Below are positions 30,017-51,156 of a stretch of 64,000 nucleotides of DNA, in pieces. The notes beneath the pieces were generated by a model. It was not told where the DNA came from. It ran no database searches and saw nothing but the letters and a program-made list of their open reading frames with translations. Position 1 is the stretch's first letter. Each line of letters begins with the position of its first letter. The position numbers and the translations under genes were made by a program. Source of the stretch: Candidatus Bathyarchaeota archaeon (GTDB lineage: Archaea > Thermoproteota > Bathyarchaeia > 40CM-2-53-6); NCBI GenBank assembly GCA_963733055.1, contig CAVTBR010000001.1:1-64000 (forward strand), given 5' to 3'.

Positions 30017-31129
30017 ATGATTGTAGCTAAGGGCCTAGAAGGCGTCATCGTTGACACGAGTTCTATTTGCCTAATAGATGGAAATGCCGGGCGACTCATC
30101 TATCGAGGTTACGACATTCACGATTTGGCCTCCAACCTGTCCTTCGAGGAAGTAGCATATCTTCTTTGGAAGGGCGACTTACCTAACCAAAAACAGCTGG
30201 AAGAACTAAGAACTCAGCTGGATCAACAACGGCCCATCCCCGAGAACTTGAAAGCAGCTATTCGAAATCTCCCTAAATCGTCAAACAGTCTCGACGTCCT
30301 TCGGACGGCCATATCGATTCTTGGAACCGGAATTCCCCTCAAAACTCCGGACATGGCTGATGCAATCGCGATAACAGCTAAGATTCCTACAATCAACGCT
30401 GCGTTCGATCGCATTCGCAAAGGCCAAGAACCTGTCGAGCCGCGCAGCGGACTTAGCCATGCCGCCAATTACCTCTACGTGTTGACCGGCCGCGAGCCAG
30501 ACGCGGCCAAGGTTGAGGCTCTAAACAGGTATCTCATCGTTCTCGCCGATCACGGTATGAATTCATCGACATTCACCGCCAGGGTTGTCGCGTCAACATG
30601 GTCGGACATGTACTCAGCCATAACCGCGGCCATCGGAGCCTTGAAAGGACCCCTCCACGGCGGCGCCCCCGCTCCCGTACTTCAAATGTTGAAAGACATC
30701 GGAAGACCTGAACACGCCGAGCCGTGGATAAGAGACTCGTTGAACGCGGGAAAAAGATTGATGGGATTTGGACACAGAGTCTACCGTACTACCGACCCAC
30801 GTGCTGAAATCCTCAGAGAAGTCGCGAGCAAAACCGCCGAAAAGAACTTCTTTGAACTCGCATGCAAGGTCGAGGAAACGGGAATTCGAATTTTGCAAGG
30901 AGAGAGGCCTCGCAAGAAGTTGTACACTAACGTAGAATTCTACTCAGCGGTCGTAATGGACTCAGTCGGCCTGCCGCCCGATCTATTCACGTCAACGTTT
31001 GCAGCCAGCCGAAGCGTTGGATGGTCGGCGAACGTGCTTGAGCAGGTGGCTAATAATAGGTTGATTCGACCTGAAACCGAATATACTGGGCCACGGGATC
31101 GAAAAGTTATGCCAATCGAGAAACGTTAG
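30017..31129 (+). CDS. Citrate/2-methylcitrate synthase
   Basis: GLEGV, DHGMNSSTF, GPLHGGA, GFGHRVY, NVEFYS; start at ATG 30017. Confidence 0.93.
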   Translation: MIVAKGLEGVIVDTSSICLIDGNAGRLIYRGYDIHDLASNLSFEEVAYLLWKGDLPNQKQLEELRTQLDQQRPIPENLKAAIRNLPKSSNSLDVLRTAISILGTGIPLKTPDMADAIAITAKIPTINAAFDRIRKGQEPVEPRSGLSHAANYLYVLTGREPDAAKVEALNRYLIVLADHGMNSSTFTARVVASTWSDMYSAITAAIGALKGPLHGGAPAPVLQMLKDIGRPEHAEPWIRDSLNAGKRLMGFGHRVYRTTDPRAEILREVASKTAEKNFFELACKVEETGIRILQGERPRKKLYTNVEFYSAVVMDSVGLPPDLFTSTFAASRSVGWSANVLEQVANNRLIRPETEYTGPRDRKVMPIEKR

Positions 31130-39916: not shown

Positions 39917-40957
39917 ATGAAAGCAACTCTCACACAACAGCAACTCTTCGCAACGCTATTCGTAACAATCGCAATCCTCGCCCTGACTCCCGCACTGGCG
40001 CATGCAGACCTACAATCGCAACCCCAAACTATCGCCCTCAATACTAGTGGTCAGGCCACGGCAATCGGTAACGGCCTCTCAGGGGCAAGCACCCTCAAGC
40101 TGACTGCTTACGCCAACACGACAGCTAATCACTGGCTCATGATACAAAACGTCACGGGATCCCTCCAAATTGGCTCCACGACCATCCCCATAACCGGCGG
40201 TCAGGGAAGCGTGAAGAACGCGGGAGCGACCGCGATATTCGCTGACACAAACTCCGGCAAAGGTCAACTAATCCTCATTGGGACAATGACCAACAGCACT
40301 GTTACCTTCAACTCACCAGAAAGCCAACTCGCCTCGATGTCATATCTCTCACTTTCCGGTACGGTCAATAAGACCACCGGCAACCTAGGCGCGAATCCTG
40401 GGAATACCAATACGAACTCCACATCGCTGACAACGGGTCTACTAAATAGTACTCTACAAACCAATTCATCAACAACATCATCAGCGGCCCAGCTTCAAAA
40501 CACCACAAGCATACAGCCTGCAAACATGACATCTACAACGAACGCCGCTGTAACTTCGTCCATGACGCTGACTACAATTCCGGTAAACGCGACTCAAACG
40601 GCTAATTCCACATCTGTGTCATCAATCGTTCGGCTTCAGAACACGACAAACGTACAAACTGGAAACATGACATTGACGTCAACGACTGTTGCTAATGTAA
40701 CTTTATCCAACACTCTCAACAATTCTACCAACTTTACTGCCACGGGTTCTACCAATATTCCGCCCAGTGCCGTACGAGCCCCTTCGAACGTCACCATAAC
40801 CGTGACGCAGTACGTTAGCCAGACAGTGTCTGTGACTCAAACGGTTGCTAATGTAACGGTCAGCTATACTGTAACCTCTACGGTAGCCAACATTACTATA
40901 ACCCAAGGGAATGTCACGACGACAACTGGAAACGTAACAACGACGGCCACAACTTAG
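39917..40957 (+). CDS. Secreted Thr/Ser/Asn-rich surface glycoprotein-like protein
   Basis: Signal peptide, many N-x-S/T sequons, repeated ANVT and LQNTT blocks. Confidence 0.7.
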   Translation: MKATLTQQQLFATLFVTIAILALTPALAHADLQSQPQTIALNTSGQATAIGNGLSGASTLKLTAYANTTANHWLMIQNVTGSLQIGSTTIPITGGQGSVKNAGATAIFADTNSGKGQLILIGTMTNSTVTFNSPESQLASMSYLSLSGTVNKTTGNLGANPGNTNTNSTSLTTGLLNSTLQTNSSTTSSAAQLQNTTSIQPANMTSTTNAAVTSSMTLTTIPVNATQTANSTSVSSIVRLQNTTNVQTGNMTLTSTTVANVTLSNTLNNSTNFTATGSTNIPPSAVRAPSNVTITVTQYVSQTVSVTQTVANVTVSYTVTSTVANITITQGNVTTTTGNVTTTATT

Positions 40958-41052: not shown

Positions 41053-41520
41053 ATGGACATCGCTCCGGAAATTTGTGGGGCTTTCCATACTCGTAACCAC
41101 CTTTGCGATGACTACAAAATCAATAAATGGTACGGACCCTTCAAGGGCCTCATGGAAGCTGCGTTTCTAGTTCAACCGTGGATTCATACTCGCACGACGA
41201 TGGACTGTTGCAGGCTTTGCTACCAAGCAAGGGAAGGCTCAGGTTTTCTGGAGTGCAAACGTGCTCATTTGGGCGGCTTCAACTCCCTCTTGGCCATGCT
41301 CAGGATGGAGCCTAGACCTGAGTTCGGTGCAGCGATGAAGCATCTGGAGGACGCGAAAGAGACCTGCCTCGCATCTGCGAACCCGGATATGCGTTGCCAT
41401 GAGAAAATGCAGAACGCTCTACAGAGTACTCAGCTTCTTTTCGATCAGATGATTGACGATTACAAGCTCAAGTATTCAATGATGATTACGAACAAACCGT
41501 CGAAAGCGCCCCCGATGTAG
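41053..41520 (+). CDS. Hypothetical Cys/His-rich protein
   Basis: 155-aa ORF with ATG start; no family recognised. Confidence 0.55.
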   Translation: MDIAPEICGAFHTRNHLCDDYKINKWYGPFKGLMEAAFLVQPWIHTRTTMDCCRLCYQAREGSGFLECKRAHLGGFNSLLAMLRMEPRPEFGAAMKHLEDAKETCLASANPDMRCHEKMQNALQSTQLLFDQMIDDYKLKYSMMITNKPSKAPPM

Positions 41521-41670
41521 GCCGAGACTTCGGATTTTGTTAAGTCGGTAAATTTCTCTACTCGAGGACTTGTTGCCGGTAGCATTGTAGGTAACAGCTT
41601 ATCGAGCAAATGCCTCGACAACGAGGTTATTGCGCAATGCGTCCATGAAAATTGGGATGGAAGATTGGGG

Positions 41671-41835
41671 TTACTTTGCTCCGAGTTCGCGTTTCTTCGC
41701 ACGCAAGTTGTGGCCGTGGCACTTTCTGCACCTGTTCGACGCTTCTGGGTTACGCGCGCCACAGTCTCTGCAAACCTTGTAGTGTAACCTGACTTTCTGT
41801 GCGAGTTGCTTCTTTACGACATCAGTGATGGGCAT
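41671..41835 (-). CDS. rpl40e: 50S ribosomal protein L40e
   Basis: Manual translation MPITDVVKKQLAQKVRLHYKVCRDCGARNPEASNRCRKCHGHNLRAKKRELGAK (below the ORF-track length cutoff). Confidence 0.92.
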   Translation of the reverse strand: MPITDVVKKQLAQKVRLHYKVCRDCGARNPEASNRCRKCHGHNLRAKKRELGAK

Positions 41836-41952
41836 TGGTGAACCACTTAGATTAATTCGTCCTCTGAGACGGAAAAGTGCAATATATACCGTGTGTTGCC
41901 AAGGTCACGAGACAATACTTCGATTCCAGTCAGTCGAGAAGAGTTGAGGTGT

Positions 41953-42516
41953 ATGGAATCCCGAGATTCGATTGCTGAAGTGTCAAGCGAGGTAGTCGGT
42001 TGTACCAAATGCCGACTGTGTGAGACTCGACGAAAAGCAGTTCCGGGCGAAGGTCTGGAAAGATCAAGGGTCATATTCATAGGAGAAGCGCCGGGCGAAC
42101 AAGAGGATGCTCAAGGGCGACCGTTTGTCGGGGCCGCCGGAAAACTGTTGACCGAACTCCTAGTATCAGTTGGTTTGAGGCGGGAGGATGTTTACATTAC
42201 GAACATTGTCAAATGTAGGCCTCCGAACAATCGGCCTCCAAGAAAAGATGAATCATCCGCGTGTAGGCCTTACCTAGACCGGCAGATCAGTTTGATTGCT
42301 CCACGGATTATCTGCCCGATGGGGAACTCCGCAATCCACGCGTTAATGGATTCAGATAAGGGCGTGACGGATCTGCATGGGATGCCGCTTGAGATCGGGC
42401 AAGTTACCTTCTTTCCCATGTATCATCCAGCCGCTGCCCTCTACACCTTCCAGTTGAGGAAGGTGATGGAGGAGGATTTCAAACAGTTAAAGAGGTTATT
42501 GAATACTTACGGCTAA
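41953..42516 (+). CDS. udg: Family 4 uracil-DNA glycosylase; its last codons come from the integrated element
   Basis: CTKCRLC, GEAPG, PFVG.AG, TNIVKCRPP.NR, HPAA. Confidence 0.92.
   Translation: MESRDSIAEVSSEVVGCTKCRLCETRRKAVPGEGLERSRVIFIGEAPGEQEDAQGRPFVGAAGKLLTELLVSVGLRREDVYITNIVKCRPPNNRPPRKDESSACRPYLDRQISLIAPRIICPMGNSAIHALMDSDKGVTDLHGMPLEIGQVTFFPMYHPAAALYTFQLRKVMEEDFKQLKRLLNTYG
42472..42481 (+). repeat. Left attachment core GAGGATTTCA
   Basis: Identical to 48825-48834. Confidence 0.85.
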
Positions 42517-42604
42517 GGCCGCTTTAGCGGGTATTAGGGATTCGCTGAACTACATGGAAGATTAACCCAAAAAAAAGAGGGTGGGCCGTTAAGCCCGAAA
42601 CTCA

Positions 42605-42931
42605 TTACTTCTTAACGTATTTGGATGGGAACACGTACACGTCCGCACCTGACTTCCTAACCGCTACTGGGGGCTGTTTACCTTTAGGCGTAGTCTTACT
42701 TACCCTGCCTTTAATCGCTAGATACACGTTCGTTGCCCTATCAGCAGAGTTAAGACTAAGCTTAACCGTCTTAGTTTTGCCGTCGTTAATTAACGGGTCG
42801 TAGTCGCTTGAACGGTGGGCTTCAAGCACATTATCGGGCGGCGCAGGTAGAGTTTCAGTGTTAACTAAACCTTTAATCTGATACATCTGCGGCTTACCTT
42901 TATCGGAACCCGTATTCGCTGCCATAGCCAT
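42605..42931 (-). CDS. Element-encoded 108-aa hypothetical protein
   Basis: SD-like GGGGGGTGAA upstream; T-run downstream on the minus strand (near 42569-42576). Confidence 0.7.
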   Translation of the reverse strand: MAMAANTGSDKGKPQMYQIKGLVNTETLPAPPDNVLEAHRSSDYDPLINDGKTKTVKLSLNSADRATNVYLAIKGRVSKTTPKGKQPPVAVRKSGADVYVFPSKYVKK

Positions 42932-43058
42932 AAATCCAATTCACCCCCCGCACACTAAACATACCACCTCTACCCACACTAACATAATAAGCGTATTGAC
43001 TAAAGTCACTTTAAGTGAACCTTAACCTTGCCTCCTTAAACGTCTAGGCTTGCAGGCA

Positions 43059-43160
43059 TGTTAACGTGCTTACCCGTAAAACCGTGTATTTACCTCGTTA
43101 AACTCTGTATTCGTGTTTCATGCACCTTTGTTAACGGTACCGGTAAAACCCGTGTTTACC
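43059..43160. repeat. Imperfect 32-36 bp direct repeat, two copies
   Basis: TGTTAACG..TACC.GTAAAACC.GTGT.TTTACC at 43059-43094 and 43129-43160. Confidence 0.6.
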
Positions 43161-43420
43161 CGCTTATTTCAGCTAACGGAGGCCACTTTGACCCCCGATT
43201 ACCTTCAGCAGGCAAAGAGTTGGCTGCATACTTGCTTGTGTATGGTAATACTATAGGGTTACTGGTTGCTAAAGCAACTTGAGTTGCTATACGGCATAGT
43301 AGGCTGCTGTTAGGTTACCTGCATTTACGGTTACCCTCCCCCATTACTCTAATGTACTATAGTGTACGTGGGAGGTTTATTGTTGTGTTGCTGCTGTCTG
43401 CCCCGTGCTGCCGCCTCCAT

Positions 43421-43481
43421 GTGCCTCTTAGTGCCCTATCATAAGGTGCCTACGGGTGCCCTCATAGAGAAACAAGGTGCC
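43421..43481. repeat. Iteron-like GTGCC cluster
   Basis: GTGCC at 43421, 43431, 43446, 43456 and 43477; the first four form two pairs with a 25-bp period. Confidence 0.55.
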
Positions 43482-44013
43482 TTACTGCTATCAGATCGTA
43501 ATAGTCAAGTAACGTATAGTATGGTGCCTGCTGCTGGATGGTTTACGTTGGTGTGGCCTGCCCTCCACCCCACCTTAATCGTAGTCTTAGCCCGCCCACC
43601 AGCCCCCAGCGCCACCCGTAACGGATAACCACCCATACTATTTCACTTCACCCTAAACCCCTACTATTACACCTACTACAAATAAGGCTTGAGTAATAGC
43701 ATAGTTATATAATAAGAATAAGTTCTACTCCTTGCTATCCGTGCCTGTAACGTGATGTATGCTAACCTAAGGTTTCCTTACGGAATTTATGGGTTCCGAA
43801 CTGGGTTTAAGGGAAGATTAGGGTTTATTGGCCCAAAAAATTTTTTGGTTCTATAGGACCTTCCCCTTTTTAGGTGAATTATGGTTGATTATGGTTATTT
43901 ATGTCTGTTTTAGCTTAACATCATGTTTGTTTAATCATACGTGACGCCATGTAACGACAAAGGACGTGTATTGACGGGAAAAGGCTGTATGTGGGAGGTT
44001 CTTCCTCCCTAGT

Positions 44014-44481
44014 GTGGGGCGGACAAATATGCCTCGTCCAACTCCACGCCTCACTCACGGTCTAATTATTTTAGGAGAAAGATTTTGTTTGAACCGTAAA
44101 AATAGTAAGCCGAATTGCTTTAGTAGGATTCGACCTTCAATCGCTCAGCAGCTCCAAGCCGTCGATCTTCTCGTGCAATTGTTTGGTAGAGTCATCAGTT
44201 GTCCTAAGTGTGGTAAGGCCGGTCGAATCAGCGTTAACCGAACTAACCATTACGCTGTGTATCGTTGCCGTGTCGGGTTAACGCCCACCCATCCGAAGCT
44301 CTGTAGCCTCGGCGTTTTTGACGGACGATTTCTACTTAACGACCCTGAAGGGTCAGAAGCCGTTCAAAGGCTGTGGCAACTGTTCCGGAACGTTGTTAGG
44401 CCGCTGGCTTTGTCGGTTGCTGAACGATCGCTGCTTGTTAAGATAAGAACGTACTCGAATAAGAAAGAAGGTGATAATTAA
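44014..44481 (+). CDS. Element zinc-ribbon protein (start uncertain)
   Basis: CPKCGKAG...YRC......H...CSLG. Confidence 0.6.
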   Translation: MGRTNMPRPTPRLTHGLIILGERFCLNRKNSKPNCFSRIRPSIAQQLQAVDLLVQLFGRVISCPKCGKAGRISVNRTNHYAVYRCRVGLTPTHPKLCSLGVFDGRFLLNDPEGSEAVQRLWQLFRNVVRPLALSVAERSLLVKIRTYSNKKEGDN

Positions 44482-45012
44482 ATGACAAATGAAATTAAGA
44501 AAGATGATGGAGCCTCCGAGCACCCCCCAGCAGGGAGTTGGGCTGAAGCAGCATGGGCTTACCAAAGACACCAAGAGGCCACGCAGCCTAAACCAGCTAC
44601 TCCACCTTACGGTTTCACAACGGAACAAGCTTCAAGGTTCAACCTTTTGGAAAACCTGAAGACCGCCCGTGAGAACCTACAGCAGAAATTGGAGGCTGAA
44701 GCCCCAGACATCAGTCGATTAGATGATACTACGCCGCTTACAGGCACGCCTTACACCTTGCTAACCTTTCCGGATACCGACACGATGGATCACTGGGTTT
44801 CAAACGCCGCCCCTAATATTCGGGTTTGGAAGACAGGAAAAAGTTCCTACAACATCTCTGTCTGGTGCATCGTATCTTACAACAACACTTCGGCCGGTAA
44901 GTTGCCGAGCGTGCCCGACCCAGAGAAGGACTTACGTAATAGTGGCCGTGACCAACCAGAGAATCCTTCTAACAGCCAGTCCGGCGGAGCAACCGACAAC
45001 GACTTTCCTTAA
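44482..45012 (+). CDS. Element hypothetical protein, 176 aa
   Basis: SD GAAGGTGA upstream; T-rich tract downstream near 45031-45039. Confidence 0.7.
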   Translation: MTNEIKKDDGASEHPPAGSWAEAAWAYQRHQEATQPKPATPPYGFTTEQASRFNLLENLKTARENLQQKLEAEAPDISRLDDTTPLTGTPYTLLTFPDTDTMDHWVSNAAPNIRVWKTGKSSYNISVWCIVSYNNTSAGKLPSVPDPEKDLRNSGRDQPENPSNSQSGGATDNDFP

Positions 45013-45076
45013 CCTCCCCTAATTCCTCCGTTCTTTTTTGGAGGCATATTTCCGTTAAAATGAATGTGAGTATGAA

Positions 45077-45370
45077 ATGAGTATTCTTGATTTAATTCGA
45101 CGTGGCCTTCCTCATATCTCGATTACTTATGGTAACGCCCCTACAGCCACTGCGCCTACTACTCCGCCGACACCTATAGTAACTAAACCGCCATTGCCAG
45201 TTAAGCCCCCGAAAATCACACACTTCAAGGATGGAAGCTGTCGTTTTGATTTTCCGGATTCGGAAAGTCAGCAGGCTTGGTTATTGGCCCACAGTGGCCG
45301 TCCACTAATTTTCCAAATTGCACCTGAACGGACGACTACCGCTTTTGTCCTCAGCGGGGTAGACAGGTAG
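45077..45370 (+). CDS. Element hypothetical protein, 97 aa, Pro/Thr-rich linker
   Basis: ATG start, same strand as neighbours. Confidence 0.6.
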   Translation: MSILDLIRRGLPHISITYGNAPTATAPTTPPTPIVTKPPLPVKPPKITHFKDGSCRFDFPDSESQQAWLLAHSGRPLIFQIAPERTTTAFVLSGVDR

Positions 45371-45380
45371 GTAGTCTAGC

Positions 45381-45530
45381 ATGGAATCGAAAACGTATCG
45401 CTGTTCCCGCTGTGGCAGAACCGTAAGTGCCCCGAAGAACATTTACAGTTTCACGGACCAAGCCAACGTGAGGCGTAGGCTGCATAGAGCCGACTGTGGG
45501 TTGCTTAAAGCCGTAAAAAGGGGTGAGTGA
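45381..45530 (+). CDS. Element 49-aa zinc-finger protein
   Basis: Manual translation MESKTYRCSRCGRTVSAPKNIYSFTDQANVRRRLHRADCGLLKAVKRGE. Confidence 0.55.
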   Translation: MESKTYRCSRCGRTVSAPKNIYSFTDQANVRRRLHRADCGLLKAVKRGE

Positions 45531-45686
45531 AACTTAACAAATCATCTAACCGTATTTACCGACCTTCCATCTGCTCAAGCTATGGCTGGCGTTACCGGAA
45601 CCGTCGTGTCCGTGTGGAGTAACGCAACTATGAGTCAAATCCTCATTCTCTGGCACGATTAAGGCTGATTTCCGGGGTTCTTAACC

Positions 45687-46556
45687 TTGAGTGAACAAAT
45701 AGAGGAATACACTAAAGATTACGGCTACAATAGTAGCTTCCGCTCTGCTGAACCACCGAACAGGCTACCTGAACCCGTTAGGCAACTGATTCTACAAGGA
45801 GCATACGGACCCACTCCACCGGAACCTAACAACCAGAATGAAATTATTGGCCGTGAAGGCGTTCTTAGAACCCTACACAGCTTGAAGCATCAAGGCTTCA
45901 CCCGCCGCCTAGTTAATCAGGACCGAAACAACGATGAGAAAGCTCACCCCGACATCTTAGCTTACCATCCAGCATTAGGCTGGGTTCAAGCTGAAACCCA
46001 CTTCTACATTAAAACCCGCTACGTAGACGACCAGTTAAGCATCCGGAAGAATATTCGAAAAGCATGGTTCCAAAACTTACCTAAATTCGTAGTCATGATA
46101 TGGCAAACCCCCTACGCTTACTCAGCCCAACATAACCTACTCCTACACGGAATAGGCTTATGGAACGGCCTAAACGAACTAACCGGCCTAACCGACGAGG
46201 GGGTGTGTGTTGTACAAGGACAGTGTGAAGGTGTCTGTATTGATAGTAAACGGGGTCAGAGAGAGGGTTTGAGTGAAGGTAAACGTGCTGTGGAAGGTTA
46301 CTTACAGGGGGAAGGTCAGTGTAATGGGTACTGTAATAGCGGTTATAGTACTGATGTAAGTAACGACGACGTTTATGGTGGGGTTGGTGCCCCTCGCCGG
46401 AGGCTCCCTATTGCTGGTTTAGAATCATCTCATAAGCACTTCAACGGGGTAGGCCGTAACCGGTCGTACTGTGATGGCCTGCAGGGTTATTGTGAGCATG
46501 GTTACTGTAAAGGGTACTGCATGTGGGGGGCTTGTAACGTTAGGTGGGTTAACTGA
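45687..46556 (+). CDS. Element protein with a PD-(D/E)XK-like N-terminal domain and Gly/Tyr/Cys-repeat tail
   Basis: GREG..., HPDILAY....GWVQAETH; tail QCEG, QCNG, YCNS, YCDG, YCEHG, YCKG, YCMWG. Confidence 0.5.
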   Translation: MSEQIEEYTKDYGYNSSFRSAEPPNRLPEPVRQLILQGAYGPTPPEPNNQNEIIGREGVLRTLHSLKHQGFTRRLVNQDRNNDEKAHPDILAYHPALGWVQAETHFYIKTRYVDDQLSIRKNIRKAWFQNLPKFVVMIWQTPYAYSAQHNLLLHGIGLWNGLNELTGLTDEGVCVVQGQCEGVCIDSKRGQREGLSEGKRAVEGYLQGEGQCNGYCNSGYSTDVSNDDVYGGVGAPRRRLPIAGLESSHKHFNGVGRNRSYCDGLQGYCEHGYCKGYCMWGACNVRWVN

Positions 46557-46605
46557 TGTTGATGTTGTTCATGATTGGTCTGAACCGTTTATTTATTTCA
46601 TCATG

Positions 46606-46867
46606 GTCACGGCTTAGTGGTTGTTTCCAGAAATGGTTTTTTCCTTAAGCCTGACATGCCGGGTCGGTTGCTTCATCTCCTCCGATTCGGCGGCGGGTTG
46701 AGTTTCACTTCAGGGGCAACCCGTTCCTAGTTTCTTCCTTCCTTCCCAGTCACGGCTTGAGTAGTTGCTTCTTAAGCCGGACAAGTGCTGAGCCGGTTGG
46801 CTTTATCTCCTTTCGGCTCTGGCCGGGTTGTTTGCTTCCGACGTGTTCGTTGGAGCAACTTAACCCG
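46606..46867 (+). repeat. Tandem imperfect duplication (143-bp period), three hairpins per unit; candidate structured ncRNA
   Basis: Units start GTCACGGCTT at 46606 and 46749; stems are kept despite substitutions; G-U pairs fit the + strand. Confidence 0.65.
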
Positions 46868-46871
46868 CCTA

Positions 46872-48245
46872 CTATTTTATTGGTTTTAAGTGTTTGAGCG
46901 GTAGCGCTGAAGCTGAAGGAAGAGGCTTACTACTCCTCCGTTTCTTCTTGAGTGGTTTCGGTTTAGGTTGTGCTGCTGACGATTCCACGACTTCAGCGGC
47001 TACTCCTAATCTACTCAGGCGATTAATGAGTTTCTGCTGCTCCCAGCGCATGCGTTCGTTGTTAGGGTCGTCTGGTGTGGGGTCCTCGGCTATGGCTATT
47101 TGCACCATGTCTAATTGCTCCTTCAAATTCACAATAACTTCGTCTTTGAGAAGTTTGTTTTCTTCTTGGAAGCTGGTTAACTGCTGGGTCATAGCTTTGA
47201 CTTCGCCCTGTAGTGTGGGGTTCTCTGCGTCCACGTAAGCCCGCCACTTCATCCATTCTGCCTTAACCTGTTCTGGCTTGTGTAGTAGCTGTAGGTACAT
47301 GTTCTTGTCTACTACGTGACCGGTCATGAACTGTAGGTACACTTGGTTAATCTTAGCGTCTGTTAGTCCGTCCGTGACCATCAGGTCCCTGAAGAAATGT
47401 GGCCTAGTCGTTTCCTTTATGCCCGCTCGCTTACGGGCCATATGCCAAGGCTTAAGGTAGTGCCATCCCCGTATAGCTTCTTTACGGCCTTGCCCGCCAT
47501 GTACTCTAACCATCCATGGGGCAGGCTCATTAACGAATGGTGTTAACACTTTGGCCGGTATGAATGTGAAGTAGCCTTGTTCCTGACTCTTACGGAAGTT
47601 ATAGCTTAACATGATAGCTTCGTTAGGTTCTCTTGCCGCCTTTACCTGTTCTACTAGCTGAGGCCACATTTTGTTGATGAGTAGGGCTTCACGTCTGCCT
47701 AATCCACCGTACATCATAGCCGAGAATAGTTCACGGTATGGCGTCTTACAGGCCGATATAGTGGCTTTGGCTTGAGCTAGTGGCATGTAGGTAACTTTAG
47801 GTTCTATTGCTTGTTCGTCTGTGTGGTTCTCTACTATGTGGAATGTTTCAGGCGGCAGAGCCGCCCTATTATGTTTATAGAACGCCTTAATGGCGGCATA
47901 TAATAGCTCCTTACGCTTACGGCTTAACTCCGCTATGAGTGTGGTTTTATCATGTCTTTTACCGCTGGGATATAGCCTTGAGGTCTTAACTATCCCTGAT
48001 AAGATGAACTGCTGGGCTTGGTCTAGTGCCTTGTAACCGTCTGGGTCTACTTCCCTGTTCTGTCTCTCTGTAAGTAGTAGGTCAGGTGATTTACCTATGC
48101 CTGTACAATATTGGTATATGGCGTAGCTGTAAGAGTCTCGGCTAGACTCGGCCCCTAGCCTACTAAGGAACCTCTGCATACTAGCGTTAGCTTCAATGAA
48201 CGGTTTACCTATCTCGCCTTCGTGGAATAACCCTGAACGGCTCAA
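46872..48245 (-). CDS. Tyrosine recombinase/integrase
   Basis: SAM-like N-terminus (IKAFYKHN), YGGLGRREAL, FRK, PHFFR (HxxR), MTGH, catalytic Y in KNMY; coiled-coil and basic tail. Confidence 0.85.
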   Translation of the reverse strand: MSRSGLFHEGEIGKPFIEANASMQRFLSRLGAESSRDSYSYAIYQYCTGIGKSPDLLLTERQNREVDPDGYKALDQAQQFILSGIVKTSRLYPSGKRHDKTTLIAELSRKRKELLYAAIKAFYKHNRAALPPETFHIVENHTDEQAIEPKVTYMPLAQAKATISACKTPYRELFSAMMYGGLGRREALLINKMWPQLVEQVKAAREPNEAIMLSYNFRKSQEQGYFTFIPAKVLTPFVNEPAPWMVRVHGGQGRKEAIRGWHYLKPWHMARKRAGIKETTRPHFFRDLMVTDGLTDAKINQVYLQFMTGHVVDKNMYLQLLHKPEQVKAEWMKWRAYVDAENPTLQGEVKAMTQQLTSFQEENKLLKDEVIVNLKEQLDMVQIAIAEDPTPDDPNNERMRWEQQKLINRLSRLGVAAEVVESSAAQPKPKPLKKKRRSSKPLPSASALPLKHLKPIK

Positions 48246-48769
48246 AGCCCTAACCTCATTAGTGGGATGGGGGTTGGCCCCTTGTCGGCTGAAGCCGCTT
48301 TAGCGGGGCCGTGTCTATCCTGTATATTTCTCCTAAGCTGAAATATGCAGGGTAGGCACAGCCATTCATCTGTCTCGCTGTTATGGTAGAGGGTTCTGAA
48401 GAGGCCGCACTTCTCACATGATGTCGGCTTATGGCCTGTGCTTATGCTAGTCAGGGCCATGGGCGGCGTACTCTGATATGTCGTGGTACTCTGCCAGCAT
48501 CTTAGACCGGTGGGCCTTGCCCTTACAATGGCATGTCTGCGGGTTGAAGCTAACCAAAGGTTAGCTTTAGCTAACCCTTTACAGCGGACATTATGGGCGT
48601 GCTGACAGGGGCCGCTCTTACACTCTCGGCGGTTCATGTAGTCGGCTAGTTCTTGAGGTAGCTCATCGGTACTAGGCTCCGGGGACACAACAACCGGAGC
48701 CAAGAATATCGGGCCGCTTTGAAACCGTAAGGTTCCATAGCGGTCTATCGTCGGTAGTTCTCGGTTCAA
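48242..48769 (-). CDS. Element Cys-rich zinc-binding protein overlapping the integrase start
   Basis: CKSGPC.H.H...C and CEKC...CLPC; TTGA stop/start overlap. Confidence 0.55.
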   Translation of the reverse strand: MNRELPTIDRYGTLRFQSGPIFLAPVVVSPEPSTDELPQELADYMNRRECKSGPCQHAHNVRCKGLAKANLWLASTRRHAIVRARPTGLRCWQSTTTYQSTPPMALTSISTGHKPTSCEKCGLFRTLYHNSETDEWLCLPCIFQLRRNIQDRHGPAKAASADKGPTPIPLMRLGL

Positions 48770-48824
48770 GGTTTTTGCCTCAAACCTACCCTACTTCATT
48801 CAGGAATAAAAAAGTATGGATAAA

Positions 48825-48872
48825 GAGGATTTCAGGAAACTTCGCGGGCTTCTAGATTCCATATCCAGTTGA
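48825..48872 (+). other. Right attachment core plus the displaced original udg 3' end
   Basis: Reads EDFRKLRGLLDSISS-stop in frame with the core and ends 2 bp before the convergent AKR gene. Confidence 0.85.
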
Positions 48873-48874
48873 GA

Positions 48875-49852
48875 TCAGTCTTCTTCGAAGGTTGGTTTGT
48901 TCCCGAGAACGCCATCGATTCTTTCCATAACTTCTTTGCTGAGGTTCTCAATTATTGCCTCGGCCTTCATGTTCTCAGTTACCTGTTCTGAACGTGTTGC
49001 GCCGGTGATGACGGTGCTTACGTTCGGGTTCTTGAGGCACCACGCCAAAGCTAGCTGAGCCAACGTGCAATTCAGAGATTTCGCTATCGGTTCCAATTTC
49101 TTGACTCTTTCAAGGTTCTGTGGCGTGAGGATGTATTCTTTGAGCCATTCGTAGCCTTGGAGTGAAGCTCGTGTGCCGTGCGGTATCCCACTGTTGTATT
49201 TGCCGGTAAGAAGCCCCGATGCTAGGGGGCTCCAGATTGTTGTTCCCAACCCAATTTCCCGGTATAGGGGTAAGTATTCTTTCTCGACCCTGTCTCGGTG
49301 GAGCATGTTGTATTGTGGTTGTTCCATTTGTGGTGGCGTAAGGTGATATTCACGTGCAATTGCGTGGGCGCGCATTATGTCGGCGGCATTCCATTCCGAT
49401 GTCCCCCAGTACAATACCAAACCCTGGTGAATTAGATCGTCCATGGCGCGGACCGTTTCTTCAATAGGGGTCGTGGGGTCGGGGCGATGGCAGAAGAAGA
49501 GGTCAAGATAGTCAAGCTGTAACCGTTTCAGGGAGCGTCGGCATGCTTCGTAAATGTGTTTGCGCGATAAACCTCGGTCGTTGGGCCCTTCGCCGCCCCA
49601 GAAAACTTTGCTCGACACCACAAAGCTCTCTCGTGGCCATCCGGTTTTCTTCAAAACATTGCCCATGACCGTTTCTGCGTTCCCATTCGCGTATGCTTCG
49701 GCGTTATCAAAGAAGTTTACCCCCGCCTCATAGGCCGCGGACATACACTTCAAAGCCACCTCTTCACCAACCTGGCCTCCATACGTAACCCACGCGCCGA
49801 GGGATAATTCACTGAGTTTCAATCCCGAGCTGCCGAGACGACGATAGTTCAT
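48875..49852 (-). CDS. Aldo/keto reductase (Kv-beta-like)
   Basis: [38 protein letters not shown]. Confidence 0.93.
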
Positions 49853-49965
49853 TCTCGATTCACAAGGCGATGAATAAGGAGGGAATATTAAAGCAATGAC
49901 GCTGCACGAAGGCGGGGTTCTTTGGGAAACATCTTATTTCCATACAGACTCACAAACTACTCGCT

Positions 49966-51156
49966 TTGGTGTTCCTTGTGAGTCGAGATGAGAAGAAACT
50001 TGAACGCATCCGCAAAGCCATGCAACATGAAGGGCTTAGCGGTCTCGTACTTCGTATACCCGAGAATGTTTCGTACATTTCAGACGCATGGCCTGGAAGA
50101 GGCCTAAGCTACTTAATCGTACCAGTTGACCGCGACCCCATTCTAATCCACCCCGCGGGGGAGACAGTGCCTCGAACTTGGGTGGAGAATGTGAGGTTGT
50201 ACAAGTGGGAGACCTACGAGCACCTAGGGGACTCACTCGCAGTAGGAGTTGACGAAGTACAGAGAGCCTTAACGGATCTGGGAATCGGGTCTGGCACGAT
50301 TGGAATAGAACAGGGGTGGGAACATTTCCTCGGGACACCACTTCGGTACGAAATGATGGTTGCCGGAGAAAAGACAGCCACCGCACTCAGGAATCGACTT
50401 GCCGAATATGATGTGAAAAACGCTTCTCCGCTCCTAGTCCAAGCTAGATCCGTGAAGACTGAAGGTGAAGTTGTTGCGATGAAGAAGGCAAACCGAATAG
50501 CGCGCGTCGGACTGGAAACTTTTGAGAGAAATCTCAAGCCAGGACTCACCGAAGTCCAACTTTCATCGAAGATAGAACACGAGATCGTCACTCAAGGCGT
50601 GATGAAGTTCCGTGCCAATCACGTTGTTGCATGCGCTTTCGTAGCATCTGGACCCTCCACGGCGGAGGCTTACAAGTACGTGGTCGGGAATACGAAACGA
50701 AAGATGAGGCGTGGAGATCTGGTAATGTTGGAGCTTGACGTGGTGGCGGACGGTTATAGTTCTGATACGACTCGGACCTTCGTAGTCGGAAAACCCAACA
50801 GGAAACAACATGCTCTTCTCGAAGCAGTTCTAGATTCGGAAAGCTCGGCGATCGCTGCCATAAAACCAGGAGTGAGCGCGGCCGAGATAGCACGTACGGC
50901 GAACAAGGTCATTGAGAAACATGGTCTATCGGAGTACTTGGTGCATAGACTTGGGCATGGGATCGGAGTTGCAGTTCATGAGCCGATACCTGCTTTACAT
51001 GTTGAGTCGAAAGATCAGCTGAAACCTGGAATGGTTCACAGCGTTGAGCCGGGTATCTATAGCAAAAAGTTCGGTGGCATACGGATAGAAGATGACATTC
51101 TCGATACCGACCGCGGAACCGAGTATCTTTCAAACTTTCCGAGAACTCAAGAATGA
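49966..51156 (+). CDS. M24 Xaa-Pro peptidase family protein
   Basis: GYSSDTTRT, HRLGHGIG..VHE, SVEPGIY, GIRIED. Confidence 0.9.
   Translation: MVFLVSRDEKKLERIRKAMQHEGLSGLVLRIPENVSYISDAWPGRGLSYLIVPVDRDPILIHPAGETVPRTWVENVRLYKWETYEHLGDSLAVGVDEVQRALTDLGIGSGTIGIEQGWEHFLGTPLRYEMMVAGEKTATALRNRLAEYDVKNASPLLVQARSVKTEGEVVAMKKANRIARVGLETFERNLKPGLTEVQLSSKIEHEIVTQGVMKFRANHVVACAFVASGPSTAEAYKYVVGNTKRKMRRGDLVMLELDVVADGYSSDTTRTFVVGKPNRKQHALLEAVLDSESSAIAAIKPGVSAAEIARTANKVIEKHGLSEYLVHRLGHGIGVAVHEPIPALHVESKDQLKPGMVHSVEPGIYSKKFGGIRIEDDILDTDRGTEYLSNFPRTQE

Follow-up and report, generated by a model that had tools for sequence, protein, structure and literature searches.

The tyrosine integrases of archaea include non-partitioning and SSV-type enzymes, and in bacteria the icd gene of Escherichia coli is an integration site for phage 21 as well as for e14. 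In the case of e14, icd extends into the prophage, the displaced end remains at the far junction as the fragment icdC and the enzyme is reported to be active in both states (PMC13626634, accessible part). The accessible sections of the survey of Thaumarchaeota by Krupovic et al. 2019 (PMC6563490) place 39 of 68 elements in tRNA genes and 14 of 68 in 3'-distal portions of protein genes, with attachment (att) sites down to 8 bp in length (median 17 bp); “cryptic integrated elements”, which lack hallmark genes, are the majority class there, and in NitEve-E2 the last 8 nt of the target gene, stop codon included, have given way to DNA from the element, by which the frame is restored. Integrases of archaea are known to have protein-gene targets, and the accessible part of a 2021 review, which lists such targets, notes the lack of a biochemical test for any of them (PMC8371274). 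We analysed a stretch of 64,000 nt (hereafter referred to as the window; positions 1 to 64,000 of contig CAVTBR010000001.1, assembly GCA_963733055.1) from a Bathyarchaeia archaeon, in which 6.35 kb of DNA separates the body of a family-4 uracil-DNA glycosylase (UDG) gene, udg, from its original 3' end and from a convergent aldo-keto reductase (AKR) gene. The reading that we favour, with a probability of about 0.88, is that of a cryptic element integrated at udg by its own divergent tyrosine recombinase, with the supply of a look-alike tail to the target gene. A sequence-only reading of the same DNA had proposed an integrative element at udg that provides a replacement C-terminus, and this proposal is supported by empty sites in relatives, by the orphaned tail and by the fold predicted for the recombinase.

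Integration in the 3'-distal part of a protein gene, with the frame rebuilt, is already known from the Thaumarchaeota and from e14 in icd, as documented in the accessible parts of PMC6563490 and PMC13626634. The new features of this locus are the host class, the target gene udg and an integrase clade missed by profile libraries. As an integrase-encoding segment with att sites and no viral, conjugative or casposon hallmark, it is a cryptic integrated element in the sense of the accessible text of PMC6563490. It resembles NitEve-E2 and the other thaumarchaeal elements described there in being small and integrase-defined, in having a very short att site and a restored frame, and in having been checked against empty sites in relatives. 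In contrast to those elements, its host belongs to the class Bathyarchaeia, udg is outside the target list in the accessible sections of that survey, the tail shows signs of purifying selection across two elements and the integrase clade escapes Pfam. Furthermore, the frame was restored by 8 nt of unrelated DNA in NitEve-E2, whereas the replacement at udg spans 11 codons and imitates the natural helix. In common with e14 and icd, the locus has an element inside a housekeeping gene, in its 3' part, with a homologous 3' end brought in as a replacement and the displaced end left behind, but e14 is a bacterial lambdoid-type prophage remnant of 15 kb, the segment that it replaces is much longer and its excision has been shown experimentally (PMC13626634, accessible part). 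Papers on Bathyarchaeia viruses report proviruses with integrases, and their accessible text mentions neither a udg site nor cryptic elements of this kind (PMC10848311). The use of udg as an integrase attachment site was not found in the literature searched, which consisted of papers available without subscription; udg would be an addition to the protein-gene targets of archaeal integrases.

The insertion at the 3' end of udg

Two forward-strand copies of the 10-mer GAGGATTTCA, with a start-to-start distance of 6353 bp, flank the element (coordinates in Table 1). The 10-mer has three matches in the whole window, against 0.19 expected, and three matches were reached in 0 of 100 shuffles. Taken alone, a repeat of 10 bp is unremarkable here: direct repeats of 10 nt or longer make up at least 60 families in the 8.5-kb stretch around it, the 20 largest of which do not include this pair. 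The pair is significant because its two copies coincide with the points at which similarity to 18 relatives breaks off and resumes. The DNA of this genome (hereafter referred to as G000) is similar to the uninterrupted udg-AKR junctions of these relatives up to the left copy, where the similarity ends, and again from the right copy onwards. Since the relatives' junctions are uninterrupted and the similarity stops and resumes at the repeat copies, the 6.35 kb between the copies is an insertion.

The comparison was based on a search for the UDG protein in 41 related genomes, from which the best 19 non-self loci, all from the same genus, were taken. The convergent AKR gene directly adjoins udg in 18 of these 19 loci, and in all 18 udg has a tail of the [ED]DF-x-K-L-R-...-[DE]S type, which is that of the orphaned tail beyond the right copy; the KQLKRLLN type was found in 0 of 18. 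The insertion thus has direct repeats at its borders and an uninterrupted site in relatives, 18 of the 19 loci being empty. On the left, the ORF (open reading frame) of udg passes through the repeat copy and ends in EDFKQLKRLLNTYG-stop. On the right, the frame reads EDFRKLRGLLDSISS-stop after the repeat copy and ends 2 nt from the stop codon of the AKR gene. The sequence-only reading had described the 6353-bp insertion, its GAGGATTTCA flanks and both frames, all of which are reproduced by the repeat coordinates and the translations, and it had suggested a search for an empty udg-AKR junction, which exists in the 18 relatives. It had also staked itself on two points concerning the tails, and both turned out in its favour: none of the 18 relatives without the element ends in KQLKRLLNTYG, and the right-hand tail does align with udg orthologues.

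The udg body is intact and 85-87% identical to those of the relatives G019 and G013. The AKR gene beside udg in G013 (locus L003) was matched in three pieces in different frames and is probably frameshifted in the assembly. There is no tRNA gene within the window, and an Rfam scan of positions 41500-50000 gave no match. A third copy of GAGGATTTCA (30805-30814, minus strand) has no link to the element and is probably due to chance. When the element DNA was compared with 59 genomes of the taxonomic family, the only matches were the integrase gene of one relative (G011) and two stretches of 26-30 nt. A CRISPR-spacer link was considered for these two short matches and rejected: the one in G013 lies in an unrelated 603-aa ORF with no repeat array and the one in G019 within an integrase-like stretch.

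The recombinase and related elements

The identity of the 457-aa ORF that the sequence-only reading had called an integrase had to be established from its fold, because it has no match in Pfam, PHROGs or NCBIfam. Searches of PDB sequences by phmmer and with the family profile gave only chance coiled-coil rows (E ~1). In a search of 5.8 billion proteins, the family had 14 members, all of them lacking a precomputed Pfam domain. It is present in four of 401 genomes sampled across the class, all four in one taxonomic family; IMG/VR contained no relative. Weak matches to PF00589 were obtained for six of the 14 members (E up to 1, best E 0.0014), all below the gathering threshold, and five members matched a SAM-like N-terminal integrase domain. 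R171, K219, H283, R286, H310 and Y317 show little or no variation across the 14 members and follow each other in the canonical order; in this region, the G011 homologue gave a match to PF00589 in its C-terminal part (E 8.5e-4).

The AlphaFold (AF2) model, based on the family alignment, has a mean predicted local distance difference test (pLDDT) score of 72.6. The protein consists of a core-binding-like domain at the N-terminus, a catalytic domain (~150-341) and, at the C-terminus, a coiled coil with a basic tail. The best Foldseek rows for this model were XerA (2.2e-4), the integron integrase IntI and XerH. With VIA-align, the best row was the SSV1 integrase catalytic domain (Z 12.0, root-mean-square deviation 2.8, 139 residues aligned, model residues 152-341), with XerA and Brujita Int within ~1 Z unit of it, and the best 30 rows were all tyrosine recombinases. 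By its predicted fold the ORF is a tyrosine recombinase, and its earlier designation is borne out. Like the non-partitioning archaeal tyrosine integrases, which it resembles in predicted fold, it has its att site outside the integrase gene, which is intact when integrated; it differs from archaeal tyrosine integrases in having no sequence-level membership in a curated integrase family, its nearest neighbour being a structural one, SSV1, at a distance of ~1 Z unit or less from XerA and Brujita Int. It is not of the self-splitting SSV type, in which attP falls within the integrase gene and integration splits it: here the gene is still whole after integration, and the core is upstream of it, ~580 bp from the start. 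Since this clade is missed by profile libraries, annotation pipelines would overlook such elements.

The nineteenth udg locus, that of G011, is also occupied, by an insertion of ~13.5 kb at the same codon. Its udg gene ends in EDFKQLKRLLNT followed by two different residues and has no AKR gene nearby; the AKR gene lies ~13.5 kb from udg, with an orphan host-type tail in front of it and an integrase gene in front of that tail. The encoded integrase is 51-53% identical to that of G000, and no other protein of the G000 element was matched (tblastn, E 1e-3); the Pfam domains in the G011 insertion are limited to zinc ribbons, a winged-helix regulator and a domain of unknown function. The back-translated DF-K-x-L-K-x-L-L-N pattern occurs in two of the 59 genomes of the taxonomic family, G000 and G011, both with an insertion at this codon. 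The core copies of G011 differ at 2 of 10 positions, which suits an exchange of strands within the core's left part, each side keeping its own right part, and does not suit a simple target duplication. A search for the integrase family in metagenome contigs yielded 18 loci, two of which repeat the G011 arrangement. On one contig (L042), the AKR gene is followed by an orphan udg tail, identical to that of the species of G006 and G010, and then by a 49% identical integrase. In the attR regions of G000, G011 and L042, ~29 bp are conserved beside the core, and the DNA further inside is not alignable. The same site is therefore in use by independent elements with related integrases, and the suggestion that integrase homologues might lie beside udg is borne out by two further, different elements, those of G011 and L042. 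Together with the short core, the three natural attB/attP pairs would provide ready substrates for the biochemical tests of protein-gene att sites that are lacking according to the accessible part of PMC8371274.

No udg tail was found at the 13 metagenome loci with 35-39% identical integrases (L045-L057), nor at three genome loci with related integrases (G016, G011 contig 1 and G308). Most of the L045-L057 contigs begin 6 to ~530 bp upstream of the integrase start, and breaks in the assemblies may tend to fall at the presumed att site, which would be expected of a mixture of integrated and free or empty forms. G011 has six integrase-like matches to the query, one of which is a second family member (31% identical) at an unrelated site on contig 1, and its genome looks rich in integrated elements.

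We infer that the integrase made this insertion and that the element would still be able to excise. A circular form of the element would enter the chromosome by site-specific recombination, with its own tyrosine recombinase as the catalyst, between a core of at most 10 bp in the part of udg coding for the last helix (attB) and attP, the element's copy of that core. There, 11 codons and a stop codon imitating the natural end of udg would follow the core. After integration, udg runs through attL into this tail, so that a full-length open frame is kept, and its 12 original codons are left stranded at attR, beside the AKR gene. The insertion would provide a cleanly delimited mobile element for the Bathyarchaeia.

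The supplied tail and alternative readings

The product of the chimeric gene matches PF03167 (1.8e-36) and exceeds the curated cutoff of TIGR00758 (UDG_fam4; 204.1 bits, cutoff 125.3), with positions 1-172 of the 173 in the profile covered, the supplied tail included; it is thus a member of family 4 with its tail inside the profile. The score against the archaeal equivalog NF040953 was 224, below the cutoff of 250. The solved family-4 UDGs 4zbx and 1vk2 align with it along the same EDF/EDI-helix, up to a point 3-5 residues short of their C-termini. By this alignment and the TIGR00758 coverage, the supplied tail belongs within the conserved UDG domain. The chimeric UDG is presumed to be active.

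Four substitutions separate the element tails of G000 and G011 over their first nine codons, each of them synonymous, with no replacement. The final two codons are different, as are the final two residues among native udg tails, and the DNA beyond the stop codon is unrelated; the two elements have nothing in common but a half-identical integrase. Divergence that is exclusively synonymous over nine codons argues for a tail that is translated and selected, and constraint on the att arm at the DNA level may add to its conservation. The divergence would offer a compact example from nature of a host repair gene maintained in part by a mobile element.

Of the 120 udg clusters that were closest in a large protein collection, 88 had a native tail of the x-x-L-R type and 12 a tail of the K..LLN type, the latter on diverse udg bodies. 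For all 14 K..LLN rows (G000 and G011 included), at least one of the five nearest bodies was native-tailed, and the single nearest was native-tailed in 7 of 14. As a lead, this scatter would fit many independent lysogens; one of the 12 clusters, P0044, looks like ordinary variation. A more far-reaching proposal is that the tail swap, far from being a neutral frame repair, is the signature of a widespread lineage of Bathyarchaeia elements dedicated to this codon, with populations that are a mosaic of two UDG C-termini and a helix that tunes uracil repair for the element. We regard this proposal as improbable; if it were true, the element helix might favour the element through changed stability, partner binding or regulation of UDG.

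Several observations weigh against integration at udg by the element's own recombinase. The core is very short (at most 10 bp) and the integrase reaches no curated family threshold, with no Pfam match at E 0.01. The catalytic roles of the six conserved residues are presumed from their positions in the family alignment, and the tyrosine-bearing stretch (302-320) was modelled with a pLDDT below 50. A 50% identical integrase (L044) is found at a different site, so the clade is not exclusively udg-specific; this integrase has an Lhr-type helicase gene on one side and a proteasome subunit gene on the other (contig positions 6400-21143), with no flanking repeat of at least 10 nt and no displaced tail found. 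The argument for selection rests on four substitutions between two elements. In addition, one soil-metagenome run contained 26% of the sampled words and two sister runs next to nothing; the contigs of the former (161-390 nt, at least 99% identical to the element) gave thin, broken cover, none of them spanning 42472-42481 or 48825-48834, and no circle junction or excised site was found. The absence of such molecules, the lack of recognised replication or transfer genes and a 176-aa ORF without any relatives are what might be expected of a fixed remnant, a domesticated or decaying island that was integrated once and is no longer excised. This is unlikely, though to be taken seriously: the integrase ORF is unbroken and retains every family-conserved residue, the core copies agree at 10 of 10 positions, the insertion is absent from the closest relatives (udg 85-87% identical) and so recent at the scale of the genus, and the test with these thin read data had almost no power.

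Conservation of the tail as an integrase DNA-binding site (the P' arm) and not for the sake of UDG, with the open frame as a by-product, is an unlikely explanation. The conserved stretch does end at about the end of the coding tail, att arms of such length are usual, and the opposite P arm is also conserved though non-coding for udg. However, differences that are synonymous in all four cases are predicted by selection on the protein and not by a constraint on DNA binding, and the tail has retained the pattern of residues seen in the natural helix; the two explanations of tail conservation can nevertheless both be true. We consider it very improbable that a transposase- or casposase-like enzyme made the insertion. 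A direct repeat around an insertion looks like a target-site duplication, and casposons also target the 3' ends of protein genes in Thaumarchaeota (PMC6563490, accessible sections), but neither a transposase nor Cas1 was detected with Pfam, PHROGs or NCBIfam, none of the 25 longest inverted pairs listed joins one end of the element to the other, the element encodes a tyrosine recombinase, three elements have a common P arm and core at one codon, and the mismatches between the G011 repeat copies do not suit a duplication. Finally, the absence of any insertion, with an assembly chimera or ordinary allelic variation of udg as the source of the KQLK tail, is scarcely credible, even for a metagenome-type assembly with 5.3% contamination and a K..LLN-type tail found in 12 of the 120 closest clusters. 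Both junctions lie inside one contig of ~1.57 Mb, and the G011-type architecture was assembled independently in one genome record and two metagenome contigs; each K..LLN-tailed body has a host-type tail among its five nearest neighbours, and the orphan tail at attR is explained only by an insertion.

Cargo and neighbouring genes

Besides the integrase gene, the element contains about eight ORFs (Table 1), among which no replication, capsid or conjugation gene was recognised with Pfam, PHROGs or NCBIfam, non-recognition here not being absence of function. The sequence-only reading had likewise seen no recognisable Rep, capsid or conjugation gene, and these searches agree with it; its suggestion of a satellite or mobilisable family is a guess. 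As no replication, capsid or transfer gene is recognisable, the element may depend on the host or on another element to replicate or spread.

Table 1. Coordinates of the element, its att sites, its ORFs and the adjoining host genes in the window.
Feature	Position	Strand	Basis or remark
Chimeric family-4 uracil-DNA glycosylase gene (udg)	41893..42516	+	Host body to 42480; last 11 codons and stop (42481-42516) from the element
attL core, left repeat copy	42472..42481	+	Repeat search; similarity to relatives' udg ends here
Integrated element body	42482..48824		6343 bp between repeats, 6353 bp including one repeat; absent from 18/19 relatives' loci
108-aa ORF	42605..42931	-	No Pfam, PHROGs or NCBIfam match
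ORF-poor stretch, ~1.1 kb	42932..44013		Lowest G+C of the element (0.43-0.47); no Rfam match
155-aa ORF with Cys-X2-Cys zinc-ribbon-like motif	44014..44481	+	Sub-threshold PSV ORF131-like domain, E 0.0053
176-aa ORF	44482..45012	+	No relatives (only itself among 5.8 billion proteins)
Two small ORFs, 97 aa and 49 aa (second with Cys pairs)	45077..45530	+	ORF listing, Pfam scan
289-aa ORF, conserved domain ~25-165 with predicted restriction-endonuclease-like (PD-(D/E)xK-type) fold	45687..46556	+	Homologues, model
Divergent tyrosine recombinase (integrase), 457 aa, intact	46872..48245	-	Predicted fold; family-conserved residues
175-aa ORF with Cys pairs	48242..48769	-	Upstream of integrase gene, 4-nt overlap; sub-threshold zinc-finger match
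Conserved P arm of attachment site	48796..48824	+	Between integrase operon and core; conserved in attR of G000, G011 and L042
attR core, right repeat copy	48825..48834	+	Repeat search
Orphaned original udg 3' end, 12 codons and stop	48834..48872	+	Matches tails of 18/19 relatives; 88/120 closest udg clusters of the same type
Aldo-keto reductase (AKR) gene, conserved convergent udg neighbour	48875..49852	-	PF00248 at 1.1e-75; adjoins udg in 18/19 relatives

The 289-aa ORF has homologues in 12 clusters (50% identity), which cover residues ~25-170 and have P88, D89, E103 and K125 as invariant positions; no Pfam family covers this N-terminal domain. The model had pLDDT values of ~79-96 over residues 31-160, and the top Foldseek rows, AF1548, NucS/EndoMS, MspJI and Hjc, were weak (E 1e-3 to 0.2); a language-model search gave the same weak restriction-endonuclease-like lead. 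The C-terminal half is rich in Gly, Cys and Tyr, is predicted to be disordered and matches a 5048-aa repetitive protein in 55 stretches. This family was absent from the other elements compared and was found in one other genome of the taxonomic family, with marginal scores. As a guess, the ORF-poor stretch might serve in regulation or as an origin, or might encode an RNA that escapes recognition.

We would also guess that the 175-aa ORF encodes an accessory or directionality factor. The L044 integrase gene is likewise preceded by an overlapping Cys-rich ORF, of 117 aa, but the similarity of the two is not significant (E 0.026, single comparison). Downstream of the L044 integrase there is an FttA/aCPSF1-like gene with an intein carrying a LAGLIDADG domain.

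The element also contains a 22-nt direct repeat (42510-42531 and 48286-48307; 20/22 identical), which includes a palindrome with a 4-bp stem. The first copy extends from the last two udg codons to just past the new stop codon, and the second, ~40 nt ahead of the start of the integrase gene, falls within the 3' end of the 175-aa ORF. By a rough estimate, such a repeat is unlikely to occur by chance in 8.5 kb, and it could be an arm-type or regulatory site; none was seen at the G011 junction.

Upstream of udg, positions 39917-40957 encode a 346-aa Thr/Asn/Ser-rich protein with a signal-like N-terminus. The ribosomal L40e gene at 41671-41835 (PF01020, 1.2e-7) marks the host, a Bathyarchaeia archaeon, as archaeal.

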